Assembly (NCBI GenBank): GCA_900548005.1
Contig: URIZ01000009.1
Location: 2,130-66,129 of the forward strand
DNA length: 64,000 bases
Direction: 5' to 3'
Origin: an uncultured Eubacteriales bacterium
GTDB lineage: Bacteria; Bacillota; Clostridia; Christensenellales; CAG-917
The position numbers and the translations under genes were made by a program. Positions 21,192 to 55,430 of this stretch are shown piece by piece (position 1 is the first letter of the stretch; the number at the start of each line of letters is the position of its first letter). The notes under the pieces are model-generated. The model did no database searches. It was not told where the DNA came from and worked only from the letters and a program-made list of their open reading frames with translations.

Positions 21192-21219
21192 CCATCGGTC
21201 TCGACCGATGGTTTTTTTT
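21192..21219 (+). terminator. intrinsic terminator of the HU gene
   Basis: CCATCGGT-CTCG-ACCGATGG followed by eight T. Confidence 0.8.
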
Positions 21220-21833
21220 ATGAACAAAAGCAAGGAATAGCCCCTTGAACAGCAACCCTAATGTACTATGCGTGCATTTGTAAAAAATGCGATAAATCGA
21301 TGCATAACGCGAAAGCACCCCGAGAATGACAACCCTAATGTACTTACGTACATGAGTTGGCAGGCTCGGAGTACTTGCGTAATTAACTTTTCTCTCTCGT
21401 AAAAACGAAATAAATAGATAAAGAACAAGGAAACACCCATCCGAAACAAAACCCAACGTACTATGCGTACGTGATTTTGGAGCGGTTATTTGCTCACTAT
21501 CACACTTTCTCTCTCGTAAAAATGCAATATTGAGATGAAGAGCAAGGAAAAGCCCCTTGAACAGCAACCCTAATGTGCTGTATGCATTTGTAAAAAATGC
21601 GATAAATCGATGCATAACGCGAAAGCACCCCGAGAATGACAACCCTAATGTACTTGCGTACATGAGTTGGCAGGCTCGGAGTACTTGCGTAAGTAACTTT
21701 ACTCTCTCGTAAAAATGCAATATTGAGATGAAGAGCAAGGAAAAGCCCCTTGAACAGCAACCCTAATGTACTATGCGTACATGAGTTGATGGACAAGGGG
21801 CTTTGACAAAGCTATTCGCTCAATAGTGCATTT
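21219..21833 (-). repeat. six-unit array of the stop-codon-abutting hairpin element (two subtypes)
   Basis: Units at about 21219-21280, 21281-21398, 21399-21516, 21517-21590, 21591-21708 and 21709-21833. All share the CAACCCTAATGTAC-N-GTACATGAGTTG or AAAACCCAACGTAC-N-GTACGTGATTTTGG core. Confidence 0.8.
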
Positions 21834-24671
21834 TTACTCGGAGCGGAGAGCAATCGCCGGATCCTTCTTCGCCGCAATCCTTGACGGTATAAAACCTGCA
21901 AACATGCTAAGAAGGATGCTGATGGCAAACATGATAAGGCATTGCCACCAAGAGATAGACATAAGTCCGCTGATTTTGAAGATGGTCTTCAAGATTGCGC
22001 TGATGGCAAAGGAGAAACCAACAGAAATGACGATGCCGATAAGTCCGGAATAGCCGCCGAGAATGGCGGATTCGGCAAGGAAGACTCGGGATATATCCTT
22101 CTTTCTTGCACCGATCGAGCGGAGCACGCCGATTTCTTTTCTACGTTCAAGCACGGACGTGTAGATGATGATTGCAATCATTATGGTGGACACAATCAGC
22201 GAGATTGCCGCAAACGCAACAAGCACGCCTGTTATGGTGTTGACCATGGTGTTGACAAACTTCATAATGGTGGACAAGTTGTCGCCATAGCTGACGCTTG
22301 AACCGGTGTCTTTGTTGTATTGATTGATGAATGCGACAATCTTCTCTTTCGCCTCGAAGGACGAGCAGTAGAACTCAATGGACACAGGCTCTTCGAGATT
22401 TGCAACGCCGAGCTTTCTCATGATGGTGAGATCTTCGTTTTTGTTGTCTGCAAAGCTGATTTTGTTGCCTGCAAGCACCTTGATTTGCGTTCCGTTGTTG
22501 GTGGAATAATCAAAGTTGATGGGGCTGAGGTAGTAGTCGTAGTTGTCGTTGTCCGCCGCTTCTTTGAGAGCGTTCATTCTCACAACAGCCTCGTGCTTGC
22601 TTGCGCGCTCGATCAAAAGTTGCGTGAGCGCGGGCGTATAGCCCAGAACACCGTTGATTGACGTGACGGTCACGCCTGCTTTCGGACGAATGACGCCGAC
22701 CACTTTGACGGTGACGGGATCTCTCGAATCAATCCAGCTCTTGTTTTGTTCCGCATGATTGCGCCCCGTCCAAGTCTTGTCTTTCACGCCGTCGCCGTCC
22801 GTGTCAACCCACTTGTCCTCGGAGTCTTGTTCAAGATAATCGGCGTCCGAAATGACCTTGTATTCAAGCCCCAACAGCTCTTCTACGGACGTTTTGTAGT
22901 TTGCCCATTTCTTGTCTATGAGAGCTTTTATCACATCGTCTTGCGATTGAAGACCGAGCATGAAGAGTTGATAGTCAAGAAGTTGGTTGCTCTTGTCAAC
23001 AACAACCACCGTTTCGGTTGCGCTTGACGGCCAACGCGAGTTTTCACCCACAAGTTCGTATTGAGATTCGAGTAGCTTTTGGTTTGAGGACATCTCTGCC
23101 CATGAATTCATCATCGAACCGCCGTTTCTTGAGAACATGTTGAGCATATCGTTGAGCGACGAGCCGCCGATATCCATATTTTTTATATCGTCCGGCAACA
23201 CGTCAAGCACCGCATTCATTGTGTCGGCATAGGGGCTGACCTTCATATAGCGTTCCGCTGCCTTTTTTGCCTCTTCCAAAGTCGCTTCGGGATGTTCTTT
23301 CATATATTCGGCGACAATCTTGCTGTTGTTCGGGTCTTCCTTGAACGCATTGAAACTTACGCCGTAATTGTATTTGACAGTCGCAAGCGAGTCGTCAAAT
23401 TTTTCATCGATATACTTTTTGAGCTTGACAAGATCGTTTTCCGCAAGCAGCGTTCCGAGCTGATCAACCACTTTGCCGAGCATTTGTGCGGTGTAGATCT
23501 CATTGGTGTCGGGGTTTTCGGGTCTATCCGTCTCATTGTTCATCAACATGCCCAAAATTGCCGACGGATCGGTGTTTGTCTTGCTTATGGTCAGCGGATA
23601 GGTTGACAACGCGCTCTCTTCAAGCCCTCTGACATATCCCGCCGCGCCGTTTGAAAGGGACAGAACGAGAATTATGCCGATTATGCCGATTGAGCCCGCA
23701 ATGGACGTGAGCAGCGTGCGACCTTTCTTTGCGAGCAAGTTGTTCCAAGACAGATTGATTGCCATTGACAACTTCATCGCGCATTTGTCCGCTTTCTTAT
23801 ATTTTTTGAAACGCTCGCACAGCGTTTTTCTCTTTTTCTTGGGTTCTTCGGTCTTCTTTTCGACAATCTCGACGATTTCGTCTTGGGACAGCTCGCCCGC
23901 AACGTTGTCTCTTTCGATGTCTTCCACCGCTTCTTCCACAACGTCTTCGCCAAGTCTGTCTTCAAGTTCTTGAATCTCGTCCTTGGAATTGTACGGCATG
24001 GAATCACCCACAACTTCGCCGTCTTTCAAGTACACGATACGTGTGCTATACTCTTCTGCAAGTGAGGGGTTGTGCGTGACCATAATGACAAGCCTGTCTT
24101 GCGCCACTTCTTTGAGCAGATCCATGACTTGAATGCCCGATTCGCTGTCCAACGCGCCGGTGGGTTCGTCGGCAAGGATGATCTCGGGATTGTTGACAAG
24201 CGCACGCGCAATTGCCACTCTTTGCATTTGTCCGCCGGAAAGTTGGTTGGGCTTTTTGTTGGCTTGAGATGCAAGCCCCACCTTGTCAAGAGCCTCGAGC
24301 GCGCGACGCTTGATCTCTTCCTTCTCAACGCCGGCAAGAGTCAGGCTCATTGCCACGTTCTTGAGAATGTTCATGTGCGGAATAAGATTGTAGGATTGAA
24401 AAACAAAACCGATACGGCGGTTTCTATAAGTGTCCCAATCAACGTCGTCGTATGCCTTGGTGGACACACCGTCGATTTGGATGTCGCCGTTGGTGTAGCG
24501 GTCAAGACCGCCTATAATGTTGAGAAGCGTCGTCTTTCCGCACCCGGAAGGGCCGAGAATAGAGACGAATTCGTTCTTTCTGAACTCTATGGAAACGTTG
24601 TTTAACGCAAGGACTTTTTCTTCATCCTTGTCGATGACGTACTCTTTGGTTATATCTATAAGTTTAAGCAT
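21834..24671 (-). CDS. fused ABC transporter ATP-binding / FtsX-family permease (MacB-type)
   Basis: 945 aa. N-terminal ATPase ([35 protein letters not shown]), acidic linker, TM, large extracytoplasmic domain, C-terminal FtsX 3-TM bundle. Confidence 0.85.
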
Positions 24672-35262: not shown

Positions 35263-35712
35263 TTATGCCATTATGACAAATTTTATGATAAGCGCAGTGA
35301 TTGTCGCCACAATGCCGCTGCCCACAAACGCGCCAAGGAACGATGCAAAGAACACACCCACCTTGCTCGCCGCTTTTTGCAACTTGTCGTCACTGTCTTT
35401 CTTCTTTGCCTTTGGCTCTTTTTGAGCTTGCTCGGGCTGCTCTTGCACGACTTCCGCCTGTTGCATCTTTGCCCTTTCGTCAATGCGCTTGACAACCAAA
35501 AGGCAATATTCGTCAGGCGTGAAATACTTGACGGTGATGTATTCTCTGTCTTTAAGCTCGCGGATAATAGCAGACAATTGCACCTTTGTCAGAGCAATTT
35601 CTTTGGGCATTTTGTCGATGATTTCATCGGCTTCGACAATCTTATACACGTCGTTTTCGCCCGCAATGGAGCGAATGACGTCATACACCGTTTGACATTC
35701 GAGATTGAGCAT
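35263..35712 (-). CDS. small winged-helix-like protein with a C-terminal TM anchor (same architecture as 34754..35158)
   Basis: ATG 35712 is preceded by AAGGAGA. Layout: N-terminal domain, charged linker, C-terminal TM. Confidence 0.5.
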   Translation of the reverse strand: MLNLECQTVYDVIRSIAGENDVYKIVEADEIIDKMPKEIALTKVQLSAIIRELKDREYITVKYFTPDEYCLLVVKRIDERAKMQQAEVVQEQPEQAQKEPKAKKKDSDDKLQKAASKVGVFFASFLGAFVGSGIVATITALIIKFVIMA

Positions 35713-35835
35713 AACCGTCTCCTTATTGTTTCTAAAATAATAACATATTATAATAAATATAGCAATATTTTTTTGGACTCTCAACGGAATTATTGATTTT
35801 GAATAATGATGTAAAATTTGTTAAAAAACGTATAG

Positions 35836-36305
35836 TGCGGCACTTATACACACACTCTGCCTATTCGGAGTGTACTTATAAACGGACTGTGTAGCTTAAA
35901 AGACGGAACACGAGCCGCAAGGCGGCGAGCAAATCGAGCGTCGGACTTGACGGTTGTACGAGAATGCGTGGCGTTCTGTTGCGTAGCTGCCACGCAGGCG
36001 AAGTGGCACAATAAGAGAAATGGCGTAAGTTATGTCTCGACCGAGTGTTGTCCCCCGCTACGCGGTCACCGTGGGTTCCCTTTCAGGGGGAACGGTGATA
36101 GGGAAAACACCTGAGGAAAGGGGAAAGTTGCATTTAGAGTTTCAAACACTCACCCTTGTAGAGATAAAAAACAAAGCAAAAACTTATCGGGCGAAAAGAA
36201 GATTGCGCCTTGCGGCTGGATGTTTCGACAAGCTCAACATGACAATATAGAAAAATTTGTCATTTGCGCCCGTAATATCACTCATTTTAGTGTGCAAGCA
36301 GTGCC
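35836..36305. ncRNA. candidate large structured RNA or cargo segment of unknown class
   Basis: About 470 nt with no convincing ORF and many local perfect helices (TGCGTGGC/GCCACGCA, TCACCGT/ACGGTGA, GCCG/CGGC, CACTC/GAGTG). Closed by GGCACT(35839)/AGTGCC(36300) and CACACT(35851)/AGTGTG(36289). Confidence 0.3.
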
Positions 36306-36457
36306 TGACGCAGTTCGCCAACACTTCTATGATGACCGCGCCAAACGGATGAATAACAAGAAAGGCACTGTTTGAACCAAAACCCAACGTACTGAACGTA
36401 CGTGATTTTGGAGCAAGCAGTGCCTGACGAAGTTAGTCGCCGTTTGGCGCGGTCATC
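36293..36457 (-). repeat. hairpin element copy (subtype B) abutting the lysC stop codon, plus an upstream partial right arm
   Basis: 18-bp perfect inverted repeat 36331-36348 / 36440-36457 encloses AGGCACTG...AAAACCCAACGTAC-TGAAC-GTACGTGATTTTGG...CAGTGCCT. A 17-nt direct repeat lies at 36294-36310 = 36413-36429. Confidence 0.75.
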
Positions 36458-37757
36458 GGAAGGCGTTGTAAATGGAATTGATCGCCTTCTCATAATCAAA
36501 AGTGTCTACACCCACGATTATGTTCAGCTCCGATGAGCCTTGGTCGATCATGCGAACGTTGACGTTGTTTGCGGCAAGAGCGGAAAAGAGCGTGGCAGCC
36601 GTACCAAGACGAGATGCCATGTTGTGTCCGACGGTTGCGATGAGAGAAAGTCCGCTGTGGATCTCGATGTTGTCGGCGTTGATGGACTCTTGCAAGGAAG
36701 CAAGCACTTTTTGCATTTTGCCGGCGATGTACTCGTCACGGATGACAACGGAAAGCGTGTCTATGCCGCTGGGGACATGCTCGAAAGATATGCCTTCAAA
36801 CTCAAGCACGGAAAGCACTTTTCTGCCAAAACCGATCTCGGAGTTCATCATATCTTTTTCAACGTTGATGATTGTAAAGCCCTTTTTGCCGGCGATGCCC
36901 GTGATGACCTTGTTGTTTTTGGGCAAATCCTTTTCGGACACGATCATAGTGCCGGGGTGGGACGGGTTGAAAGTGTTTTTGATGTTTATGGGGATACCCA
37001 CGCTGCGAACGGGAAAAATGGACTCCGGGTGCAAGACTTCCGCGCCCATATAGGCAAGCTCTCTCAATTCTCGATAGCTCAAAAAGTCGATGATTTCGGG
37101 ATTGTCAACGATGCGCGGATCGGCGGTGAGAAATCCGTCAACGTCCGTCCAGTTTTCATAGATATCCGCGCCTATCGCGCGAGCAACGAGCGCGCCCGTG
37201 ATGTCCGAGCCGCCGCGAGAAAACGTGGTGATTTCCCCGTTTTGATTGCTGCCGTAAAAGCCGGGAATGACCGCCCTTTCAACGTTTTCAAGACGCTTTT
37301 TGATAAGGTCGAGCGAATAGTGCATTTGCAGTTTTTCGCCGTTGAATTTGACTATATCCGCCGTGTCGATAAACTCGTATCCGAGCTTTTTTGCAAGCAC
37401 GATTGCCGAGAGATACTCTCCCCTTGACGCCGCATAGTCCGCGGTTTTGCTTGCATCTATGCCTGCCTTGACTTTGTCAAGCACAGAGTCGATGTCAAGG
37501 TCAATGCCAAGCTCGAAGACGATGTCTTCAAAGCGTTTTCGCACCACCTTGAAGGTTTCGTCACAGTTGCCTTTTTCCATACGCTCGGAAAAGCATGCGT
37601 ACAAAGCGTCGGTGACTTTGACGTCCGCCTTGTTGCGCTTGCCGGGCGCGGACACAACGATGTATCGCCTGTCCTTGTCTTGATTTATGATGTCCACAAC
37701 GCGCGATATAGTGTCGCCGTTCGCCATGGACGTTCCGCCGAATTTACAAACTTTCAT
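36453..37757 (-). CDS. lysC: aspartate kinase
   Basis: KFGGTSMANG start motif, amino-acid kinase domain and C-terminal ACT pair. Start uncertain (37757 or 37775). Confidence 0.9.
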   Translation of the reverse strand: MKVCKFGGTSMANGDTISRVVDIINQDKDRRYIVVSAPGKRNKADVKVTDALYACFSERMEKGNCDETFKVVRKRFEDIVFELGIDLDIDSVLDKVKAGIDASKTADYAASRGEYLSAIVLAKKLGYEFIDTADIVKFNGEKLQMHYSLDLIKKRLENVERAVIPGFYGSNQNGEITTFSRGGSDITGALVARAIGADIYENWTDVDGFLTADPRIVDNPEIIDFLSYRELRELAYMGAEVLHPESIFPVRSVGIPINIKNTFNPSHPGTMIVSEKDLPKNNKVITGIAGKKGFTIINVEKDMMNSEIGFGRKVLSVLEFEGISFEHVPSGIDTLSVVIRDEYIAGKMQKVLASLQESINADNIEIHSGLSLIATVGHNMASRLGTAATLFSALAANNVNVRMIDQGSSELNIIVGVDTFDYEKAINSIYNAFR

Positions 37758-37801
37758 ATTTTGCCTTTTCGCCATTATATGCGGTCAACACAAAGCGTGA
37801 C

Positions 37802-39977: not shown

Positions 39978-40097
39978 TGACGTTTGCGTTGTCGTCATTG
40001 CTTTGTCAAGCGTTGCGTTGCCGCAATCGTTTTGTCAAACGTTGCGTTGTCGGCTTTGCTTTGTCAAACGCAAAGTTTTGCAGGCATTGCCGCCGCC
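39978..40097. repeat. about four tandem ~29-30-nt direct repeats
   Basis: GTCAA(A/G)CGTTGCGTTG(Y)CG...TTGCTTT units between the membrane-protein gene stop and the cdaA start. Confidence 0.6.
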
Positions 40098-43592: not shown

Positions 43593-43741
43593 GTGCGTAA
43601 TTAGAAGAACAATAAGCCTAATGCGGCTCTCGGCGTTGCTTGCTTGCAAGCGATGCCGTTGCCGCAATGACGGCTTTTGTTCGGGCGTACATGAGTTTAC
43701 GGGAGCATGGCTCTAACGCAGTTATTCGCTAAATAGTGCGC
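43593..43741 (-). repeat. rearranged hairpin element copy with a 63-nt apical insertion, abutting the ABC ATPase stop codon
   Basis: The right half is nearly identical to the 55.4-kb copy (GTACATGAGTTTACGGGAGCATGGCTCT..GTTATTCGCTAAATAGTGCGC). The left outer-stem partner is missing. CCTAATG and GTACATGAG are separated by 43624-43686. Confidence 0.7.
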
Positions 43742-44809
43742 TCACAGAACTTTGGAGAGGAAATCGCGCAACCTCTCACTCTCCGGGTTTTCGAAAATCT
43801 GTTGAGGAGTGCCTTGTTCGAGAATTTTGCCTTCTGCCATGAAGAAGATTTTGTCGGCGACTTCACGGGCGAATGCCATTTCGTGAGTGACGATGAGCAT
43901 GGTCATACCCTTGTTTGCGACACGCTTGATGAGATCGAGCACTTCACCGACCATCTCGGGATCGAGAGCGGACGTGGGCTCGTCGAAGAGCAAGACTTTG
44001 GGGGACATGGCAAGGGCGCGCGCGATTGCGACGCGTTGCTTTTGACCGCCGGAAAGCGTGGACGGATAGACGTCGGCTTTGTCGGACAAACCGATGCTTT
44101 CAAGCAGCTTGTCGGCGGTGATTGACGCGGCCTTTTTGATCTCTTTCTTGCTTGTGAATTGCAAAGGAGCAACGCTCTTTTGAGCAAAGGGAACGGTGCG
44201 ACCGATTTTGCGTTCGAGATTTTCCACTTTGTCGGTGAGAGCGAGCTTTTGTTTTGTGAGTTTTTTGTCGTAAGTGGCAAAGGGTTTGCCGCCGACATAC
44301 TTGATTGTTTTTGTTTCGTCCCACGCAGAAACGATAGGTTTAAGTTTGGTTTTGTAGTCTTCAAGTTGCGTTTGCAGCAAAACAAGCTTTTTGTCGATAT
44401 GCTTGTTGTATGCGTTGCCAAAGGCTTTGAACCATGCGTTGTGCAAAGGCACAAAAACGTTTTTAAGGCGAGTAAGGCGCATGTTTTTCACGCCGATTTG
44501 CACTGGCGCAAGCATGATATTTTCTTTGACGGTCATGTTGGAAAACAGGTTGAATTGTTGAAAAACCATACCCATTTTTTCACGCTGACGATTGATGTCC
44601 ACCTTCAAGTCCGCAAGGTCAACGCCGTCAAAAATGATCTTGCCCGCATTGGGGTCTTCAAGGCAGTTCAGACAGCGCAAAAATGTGGATTTGCCGCTGC
44701 CACTCGGGCCGATGATGGCAACCGTTTCCCCTTCTTCGATGCTTGCGGAGATGTCGTCAAGCACGAGAAGATCGCCGTATTTTTTTGTGAGATTGTATAC
44801 GTCTATCAT
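43742..44809 (-). CDS. amino-acid ABC transporter ATP-binding protein with a ~105-aa insertion
   Basis: [33 protein letters not shown] and LFDEPTSALDPE. An extra segment lies between the Q-loop region and the signature motif. Confidence 0.9.
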   Translation of the reverse strand: MIDVYNLTKKYGDLLVLDDISASIEEGETVAIIGPSGSGKSTFLRCLNCLEDPNAGKIIFDGVDLADLKVDINRQREKMGMVFQQFNLFSNMTVKENIMLAPVQIGVKNMRLTRLKNVFVPLHNAWFKAFGNAYNKHIDKKLVLLQTQLEDYKTKLKPIVSAWDETKTIKYVGGKPFATYDKKLTKQKLALTDKVENLERKIGRTVPFAQKSVAPLQFTSKKEIKKAASITADKLLESIGLSDKADVYPSTLSGGQKQRVAIARALAMSPKVLLFDEPTSALDPEMVGEVLDLIKRVANKGMTMLIVTHEMAFAREVADKIFFMAEGKILEQGTPQQIFENPESERLRDFLSKVL

Positions 44810-55261: not shown

Positions 55262-55430
55262 AAAAACCACGATAAATAGATGAAGAACTTCGTGTATGTT
55301 GTAAAAAAGCGCGATAAATAGATGAAGAACAAGAAAGAGCCACGCTATCGGCAACCCTAATGTACAAGTAGTACATGAGTTGACGGGAGCGTGGCTCTGC
55401 CGAAGTTATTCGCTATTTAGCGCGCTTTTA
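55262..55430 (-). repeat. hairpin element copy (subtype A) abutting the dehydrogenase stop codon, plus an upstream partial unit
   Basis: Intact unit at 55301-55430: arms TAAAAAAGCGCGATAAATAGATGAAGAAC / GTTATTCGCTATTTAGCGCGCTTTTA, outer stem GAGCCACGCT/AGCGTGGCTC, core CAACCCTAATGTAC-AAGTA-GTACATGAGTTG. Duplicated left arm at 55269-55288. Confidence 0.8.

Follow-up and report, generated by a model that had tools for sequence, protein, structure and literature searches.

A short-form copy of a multicopy, modular structured repeat in the gap downstream of lysC in a Christensenellales-like gut bacterium

The gap downstream of lysC and its features

The window (the whole stretch of DNA that was analysed, 64,000 nucleotides in length) derives from a Christensenellales-like gut bacterium whose LysC is 92% identical to that of CP091723, a 'Christensenella sp.' MAG with a 1.65-Mb chromosome, which is the closest complete genome to the window. 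The features of the gap downstream of lysC are listed below by position in the window.

35263-35715, minus strand: small gene bordering the gap on the side away from lysC, with a weak DUF4199 match below threshold
35716-36452, 737 nt: gap between the small gene and lysC
35838-36179, plus strand: large repeat, whole unit of a short-form copy, with nhmmer and covariance model (CM) matches to more than 100 copies elsewhere
35840-35906, plus strand: two ~33-nt 5' repeat units, ACTTATAMACGG..TGTGC.TATTCGRAG, including an ACACTC/GAGTGT hairpin (direct repeat D2)
35911-35929, plus strand: P1, a GCCGC-AAG-GCGGC hairpin closed by tandem G.A pairs and a C-G pair
35946-35962, plus strand: P2, a CTTGAC / GT(A)CGAG hairpin with a bulged A and, in the window, one T.G wobble
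35965-35996, plus strand: P3, a hairpin whose stem varies, TGCGTGGC / GCCACGCA, around the conserved loop ..TGTTGCGTAGC.
36045-36110, plus strand: three-way junction with outer helix P5, GTGTTGTCCC/GGGAAAACAC (alignment A4, 37 copies)
36055-36065, plus strand: hairpin CCGC-TAC-GCGG enclosed by P5
36066-36098, plus strand: hairpin TCACC..GTTCCC/GGGAAC..GGTGA enclosed by P5
36108-36179, plus strand: 3' module found in short and long forms, with CACCTGAGGAAAGGGG, a GAGT/ACTC terminal hairpin, the CTTGTAGAG motif and an A-rich end
36137-36140 (GAGT) and 36148-36151 (ACTC), plus strand: strands of the terminal hairpin of the 3' module
36180-36293, no strand assigned: lineage-specific tail with its own hairpin, CGGGCG..CGCCCG, outside the large-repeat family
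36294-36319, plus strand: partial right arm of a small ~125-nt hairpin element, 95% identical to 36413-36434 (D1)
36331-36457, plus strand: intact copy of the small hairpin element, which belongs to a different repeat family and extends over the lysC stop codon (inverted repeats I1 and I2)
36453-37775, minus strand: lysC

The gap had been described in a preliminary description as about 740 nt with no convincing ORF, and this was upheld as only ORFs of 51-72 aa are present. No credible Pfam match was obtained for any of the gap ORFs; the sole listing was Zn_ribbon_13 in the ORF at 36287-36499 (minus strand), with E=0.059 and 14 bits against a cut-off of 23. ARAGORN detected no tRNA or tmRNA in the segment, and a scan of the whole window against Rfam 15 at gathering score returned nothing in the gap. 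The only Rfam family found at gathering score in the window was a THF riboswitch (RF01831, 9414-9507, minus strand, 61.2 bits). Scans at E<10 of the window copy and of copies in three other loci (L011, L006 and L172) gave only chance-level snoRNA and sRNA matches of 14-24 bits, in agreement with the claim that the segment matches no known RNA family. The 470-nt segment folds better than dinucleotide shuffles (z −2.9 on the plus strand and −3.4 on the minus strand); its portrayal as non-coding and helix-rich was borne out.

The segment had been delimited as 35836-36305; the conserved unit, however, spans only ~35838-36179 (~342 nt) and is one short-form copy of a multicopy structured repeat, referred to here as the large repeat. 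The ends of the unit were read from head-to-tail tandem copies in L229, which give the repeat-unit start and the end ...CTCTTGTAGAGGAAGAACAAAACAC. With filters off, the CM finds one copy in the 64-kb window at 121.5 bits, the next best match scoring 10.8. The parts run in the order repeat units, P1, middle, three-way junction, purine-rich module, terminal hairpin, CTTGTAGAG and A-rich end, and the middle region of the window's type holds P2, the variable P3 and a GTGGCA hub. In other members the ~33-nt unit is present in 1-4 copies at the 5' end.

The gap sequence was searched against 80 lysC loci from GTDB genomes, and in one of them, L001, the whole gap is present at 87% identity. The tail (36180-36293, ~115 nt) is found by nhmmer in the window and L001 only; its hairpins include CGGGCGAAAA/TTTGCGCCCG and TGACAA/TTGTCA. 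A 12-nt perfect inverted repeat (I6, 35913-35924/36206-36217) was considered as a long-range closing helix and rejected, because its left arm coincides with the P1 hairpin and its right arm falls within the tail, which does not belong to the family. Elsewhere in the window, three tandem 29-nt repeats (TTGCGTTGTCG..TTTGTCAARCG) occupy 39984-40070 and adjoin a gene for a DAC-domain protein (diadenylate cyclase).

The preliminary description took the segment for cargo in the apical position of a small hairpin element, with the segment's two ends pairing to close it. It was right that 36294-36319 is a partial right arm of this element, and L001 retains a longer remnant of the arm, broken near the apex. 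The arm is, however, merely a neighbouring fragment, as no outer-stem partner for 36320-36330 exists upstream and the left arm is absent. The supposed closing helix GGCACT/AGTGCC joins two unrelated parts: GGCACT belongs to the large repeat's own ~33-nt 5' unit (GCACTTATA...), and AGTGCC to the small-element fragment. The second, CACACT/AGTGTG, is not conserved, since L001 has CGCACT with no partner. Furthermore, 115 nt of the 'cargo' is the unrelated tail. Among 67 internal full-length large-repeat copies elsewhere, a small element occurs within 150 nt on the 5' side of 16 (24%) and on the 3' side of 12 (18%), in mixed orientations; 51 of the 67 lack one on the 5' side and 55 lack one on the 3' side. 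This enrichment near large repeats, and a weak GATG-type motif ~30 nt upstream of the large repeat, speak for the cargo arrangement, which is nevertheless largely refuted and which we consider very improbable.

The small element was also observed in the window at 55304-55430, in an array at 21194-21850 and at 43685-43742, as well as in loci L001-L200. In total, 126 nhmmer matches were obtained in the loci and window, and it has no Rfam match. Its stems differ among copies yet stay complementary, and conservation is seen in both the apical hairpin and the internal loops (GATGAAGAACAAGRAAR / CTGMCRMAGTTAKTCGC). In the copy at lysC, the outer stem (36440-36457/36331-36348) includes the stop-codon region CGCGGTCAT together with its inverted counterpart, ATGACCGCG. 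This same stem is found at the lysC stop in both the window and L001 (5335-5440), whereas the inner parts differ, which suggests that the element is rebuilt or replaced at a fixed site. A half element, consisting of 'outer arm + GCGAMTAACTTTGTCAG + GC-rich hairpin + T-run', was seen directly after stop codons, at L238 4880-4935 and in the 3' flanks of the large repeat in L096, L143, L150, L172 and L193. It looks like an intrinsic terminator with a conserved upstream motif.

Pairing within the repeat

All of the complementary strings picked out in the preliminary description are present where it placed them, including TGCGTGGC/GCCACGCA (35965-35972/35989-35996), GTGTTGTCCC/GGGAAAACAC (36045-36054/36101-36110), TCACC/GGTGA (36066-36070/36094-36098) and GTTCCC/GGGAAC (36075-36080/36088-36093). 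TCACCGT/ACGGTGA had been drawn as enclosing GTTCCC/GGGAAC; both sets of strings exist, but they cannot nest as written as they overlap by two bases (AC), and only one register can therefore hold.

Pairing was assessed in alignments of 34 hand-checked copies (A2), 37 junction copies (A4) and 100 distinct CM-aligned copies (A5). In A2, 89.9% of cells in P1, P2 and P3 are paired compared with at most 50% when the strands are slid, and 11 pairs have changed on both sides. The corresponding values in A5, which was fitted to the model's own structure and whose copies are kin to one another, are 88.0% against at most 46.7% with slid partners, with 15 of 19 pairs changed on both sides. Taken together, the three alignments have 88-95% of cells paired against at most 52% when slid, and the observed covariation score was reached by none of 500 shuffles. 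Pairing is thus kept beyond slid and shuffled controls.

The substitutions are distributed over the individual helices. The pairs of P1 covary (for example CG:55, UA:16, GC:15; closing pair CG:66, GC:19), and P2 is paired in 93% of cells, with CTTG/CAAG replaced by CTCG/CGAG. P3 has at least four stem sequences, each self-complementary, around the conserved loop TGTTGCGTAGC; all seven of its model pairs have changed on both sides, and the stem in L011, for example, is TGCGTGAC/GTCACGCA. Even the window and L001 copies, which are orthologous at 87% identity, bear different P3 stem types. At the junction, CCGC/GCGG alternates with CTGC/GCAG, and CACCG/CGGTG with CGCCG/CGGCG and TTCCG/CGGAA across the 37 copies, so that the proposed three-way junction was confirmed as P5 enclosing two hairpins. 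GTTCCC/GGGAAC was fixed by the search pattern and is therefore uninformative in A4, and L092 has TCCC/GGGA changed to CCCC/GGGG. As copies show compensatory changes, the earlier helices TGCGTGGC/GCCACGCA, GCCG/CGGC, TCACC/GGTGA and GTGTTGTCCC/GGGAAAACAC are real features of the family, and several helices are under selection for pairing. Long-range pairs of GTGGCA (with TGTGC, GCCG or TGCC) were dropped, as predictions were inconsistent and clear covariation was absent.

These compensatory substitutions also bear on whether the segment is a decayed protein-coding gene. ORFs of 55-72 aa are present, as might be expected of such a relic, but they have no credible Pfam matches, the 72-aa frame is stopped in L001 (TTG CAT TAA), and many indels of 1-2 nt separate the copies. 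With the stems changing in a compensatory manner, this origin is scarcely credible. None of the outcomes named beforehand as counting against the preliminary description (an Rfam match, a decayed protein gene, or no conservation or covariation) was found.

The folding strand is weakly indicated to be the plus strand of the window, where a by-eye count over cleanly aligned helices gave ~14 clean G.U cells versus ~6 A.C cells; the reverse strand folds equally well in RNAalifold. No sigma-70-like promoter was found on the plus strand upstream of the window copy, and a weak one was predicted at L172. Terminators following the copies in L011 and L046 were considered as a sign of the transcribed strand and rejected: L002 has the same terminator without the large repeat, and the terminator therefore belongs to the convergent gene.

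Distribution, forms and rearrangement of the copies

The large repeat is a dispersed multicopy family, absent from Rfam, in a clade of uncultured gut Christensenellales-like bacteria. Scans against Rfam returned nothing, and nhmmer and CM searches gave more than 100 copies elsewhere. An exact 20-mer from the conserved stretch of long forms matched at least 120 stretches in GTDB genomes, and all but one record among the matches listed were gut Clostridia (Christensenellales-like) MAGs or bins. An exact pattern for the 5' core matched at least 118 stretches, mostly new loci and including a second locus in CP091723; almost all of the exact-pattern matches listed fall in ~20 Christensenellales-like gut MAGs. 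Single MAGs carry at least 16-17 loci (at least 17 in CAKQUV), and many of the matches in the GTDB listings are at contig ends. In the fetched loci nhmmer found ~184 pieces, of which 81 measure 280 nt or more, and a covariance model of the 5' core (R1) gave 101 matches in 763 kb. No copies were found in IMG/VR (two pattern scans) or in INPHARED phages and PLSDB plasmids (blastn), and no published description of the family was found in the literature searched. Several bins rich in the repeat (L081, L098, L113, L004, L046 and others) are titled Phascolarctobacterium, Butyrivibrio, Anaeroplasmataceae or Bacteroides; carrying a Christensenellales-type repeat, they are probably mislabelled. Paralogues within one genome are only ~80-92% identical, and there is therefore no sign of a recent burst.

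Members share a common 5' end (1-4 ~33-nt units and P1) and a common 3' end (GAGGAAGGGG module, GAGT/ACTC terminal hairpin, CTTGTAGAG and A-rich end), between which lie interchangeable middle modules. Short forms, the window's type (alignment A1), are ~325-345 nt and long forms 450-650 nt, and both are mosaic. Long forms contain a ~100-nt domain that is more than 90% conserved, the remainder being 60-80% conserved. As an insertion, this domain splits one junction strand into its GGG and AAACAC halves without disrupting the helix around it. In a third form the whole middle is swapped for an unrelated ~250 nt. The starts also vary: some copies begin with (TAATAAT)n and a GGAAGGC..GCCTTCC hairpin and others with a GTCCGC..GCGGAC hairpin, and fuller copies have an AT-rich promoter-like 5' module, TTAATA-17-AATAAT. 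In L001 such a start is nested within the 5' fragment of another copy, as a nested 5' duplicate. The window copy has neither the promoter-like module nor the ~100-nt domain, and appears to have arisen by deletion between the two P1 repeats. Head-to-tail tandem pairs of short forms occur in L229 (4862-5510, with units of ~325 nt) and L231 (6257-6731, where CM matches begin 318 nt apart). Many copies are truncated, chimeric or mismatched, and the Hb helix is broken in L098, L100 and L174. No copy was found with its 5' and 3' parts more than ~350 nt apart.

At the lysC site, presence and absence in relatives were compared as had been proposed. In addition to L001, parts of the gap are present downstream of lysC in L006, oriented as in the window, and in L011 and L046, where their orientation to lysC is reversed; L011 and L006 have a longer version with an extra, very conserved stretch. 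The large repeat is absent downstream of lysC in L002, L003 and L004, whose LysC is 78-87% identical. Copies persist at this site across lineages with LysC identities of 71-92%. A second orthologous locus has the repeat inverted between L092 (1536-4997) and L238 (2987-6364). Here, two tandem paralogous genes of ~445-475 aa, 77% identical between the two MAGs, encode surface proteins that carry a signal peptide of lipoprotein type and, at the C terminus, a membrane anchor. Large-repeat copies lie on either side of the two genes and between them. These Pfam-less paralogues were rejected as a partner of the repeat, the pair being a single orthologous locus in two genomes.

Opposite orientations downstream of lysC (the window, L001 and L006 versus L011 and L046) and between the surface-protein paralogues (L092 versus L238) would be expected of a phase-variation switch, in which a site-specific recombinase inverts a DNA segment. 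Convincing inverted repeats were, however, not found at the borders, and the promoter of the downstream gene (TTGACA-17-TAAAAT) lies outside the element in both orientations. Nor is there a recurrent recombinase gene nearby. As the two inverted copies are of different subtypes, independent insertion or conversion fits better than flipping, and we consider a switch of this kind improbable.

Copies are located in intergenic DNA, and their neighbours give no strict orientation rule. The upstream gene is in the same orientation in 41 cases and opposite in 31, and the downstream gene is opposite in 45 and in the same orientation in 24; copies therefore tend towards gene 3' ends, being mostly beside these and terminators. 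Clustering of 413 ORFs within 1.5 kb, with Pfam searches of recurrent neighbours, revealed no recurrent protein family beyond housekeeping, and no transposase, reverse transcriptase, nuclease or recombinase partner was found among them. No ORF lies within any copy. Terminal inverted repeats were not seen, as the repeat units at the 5' end are not complementary to CTTGTAGAG and the A-rich stretch at the 3' end, and no target-site duplications were seen around the copies, whose ends are approximate.

The family could alternatively be a stand-alone guide-RNA scaffold of the omega-RNA kind, or another relic of the IS200/IS605 type. It is multicopy, large, ornate, ORF-less and RNA-like with no terminal inverted repeats; a hairpin is present subterminally on the 3' side and, in some copies, also on the 5' side (GTCCGC..GCGGAC). 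Some stretches, such as ..CTTGA..AAGCGAAGTGGCA.., may resemble IscB omega-RNA. Against this, HEARO (RF02033) and all other Rfam families failed to match four copies even at E<10, and no IscB-, IsrB-, TnpB- or TnpA-like ORF adjoins any of the more than 100 copies, leaving such an origin with a slim chance.

Nature of the repeat and comparison with known systems

We favour, with a probability of about 0.55, the reading that the large repeat is a non-autonomous, recombining, RNA-like structured intergenic repeat, of which 35838-36179 is a reduced short-form member. Its copies are dispersed and mosaic, some of them tandem or nested, and they differ in presence and orientation at orthologous sites. 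The repeat would have reached high per-genome copy numbers within a single clade of gut Clostridia with small genomes. It may have spread and been reshuffled by trans-acting machinery and/or recombination among copies, and would therefore be non-autonomous. The conserved pairing would reflect a single-stranded form, either an RNA transcript or an ssDNA intermediate, probably of the window's plus strand. The most probable status of the window copy is that of a passenger without a particular role for lysC, and nothing special is implied for lysC itself. Against this reading stand the failure to find a transposase, reverse transcriptase or nuclease partner near copies, the terminal inverted repeats and target-site duplications that were looked for and not seen, the identity of only ~80-92% among paralogues of one genome, the weak indication of the folding strand, and the plus-strand promoter not found upstream of the window copy. 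Persistence at the lysC site across diverged lineages and in ~1.6-Mb genomes could instead reflect a selected function, and together with the very conserved optional domain it keeps a functional-RNA reading alive.

One such reading is that the copies are paralogous genes for trans-acting structured RNAs, in which P1, P2, the junction and the 100-nt domain would form a conserved scaffold acting with a protein encoded elsewhere, and variable modules (the P3 stem and the middle region) would give specificities. Covarying helices stand beside conserved loops, with the P3 loop TGTTGCGTAGC kept as its stems differ; the 100-nt domain is more than 90% conserved against 60-80% elsewhere and its placement leaves the enclosing helix intact; diverged lineages retain a copy at lysC; and fuller copies carry the promoter-like TTAATA-17-AATAAT at their 5' end. 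The many truncated, chimeric or mismatched copies (such as L098, L100 and L174 with their broken Hb helix) are at odds with this, as are the missing promoter-like module and conserved domain in the window copy, the lack of an orientation rule relative to neighbours, and the failure to find a partner protein. We therefore hold it only tentatively, as an unlikely but substantial alternative. It is likewise doubtful, though worth considering, that the family represents mobile structured RNA of a new class, large and modular. A conserved scaffold, to which the 100-nt domain with its more than 90% conservation would belong, would act with an unlinked protein (as guide-like, ribozyme-like or retro-mobile RNA), and its modules would be exchangeable. 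If true, the situation would be comparable to that of HEARO before IscB was understood, and the window copy would be a minimal derivative lacking the domain.

The favoured reading and these functional ones make the large repeat either an unusually elaborate selfish element or the scaffold RNA of an unrecognised system. A repeat of 325-650 nt with multi-helix junctions is present at no fewer than 16 loci in single draft MAGs with no Rfam entry, and breaks many MAG assemblies at contig ends. It merits cataloguing, as it confounds efforts to assemble and annotate genomes of an abundant human-gut lineage that is uncultured.

Among known systems, group II introns that lack ORFs, including permuted forms (PMC8637638), are also multicopy and structured. 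The large repeat is too short to be one, its P1 is a 5-bp stem with a triloop and not a domain-V hairpin, and no Intron_gpII or group-II-D1D4 match was obtained at E<10 for four copies. ROOL, GOLLD, OLE and raiA RNAs are alike in size range, in their many covarying helices and in that their biochemical function is not known. They are typically present in one or few copies per genome, whereas the large repeat occurs in many, often fragmentary or mosaic copies, and has no Rfam match to them. HEARO, the IscB omega-RNA (RF02033), and TnpB omega-RNA share with it the character of a large, ornate, multicopy RNA linked to mobility, and HEARO was first found as an unexplained structured repeat; the large repeat differs in having no Rfam match and no adjacent IscB or TnpB ORF in the copies examined.

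MITEs, REP/BIME, Correia and RUP elements are, like the large repeat, non-autonomous multicopy intergenic repeats near gene ends, and can affect transcripts. In the large repeat neither terminal inverted repeats nor target-site duplications were seen, and its stems vary yet stay paired, which is not the pattern of transposon ends copied without change. Modular intergenic repeats such as the BOX elements of Streptococcus pneumoniae have been reviewed (PMC3184786, PMC10969869). The large repeat is much bigger (325-650 nt), with multi-helix junctions, an optional 100-nt domain and interchangeable middles; it also lacks complementary end modules and sequence similarity to BOX, and is restricted to the Christensenellales-like clade. 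Like BOX, it has many dispersed intergenic copies, is modular with a variable number of repeat units, and is ORF-less and non-autonomous, with predicted stable folds and a mobilising enzyme that is not known. With its many copies, absence of ORFs and variable modules, the large repeat is a BOX-like modular dispersed intergenic repeat.
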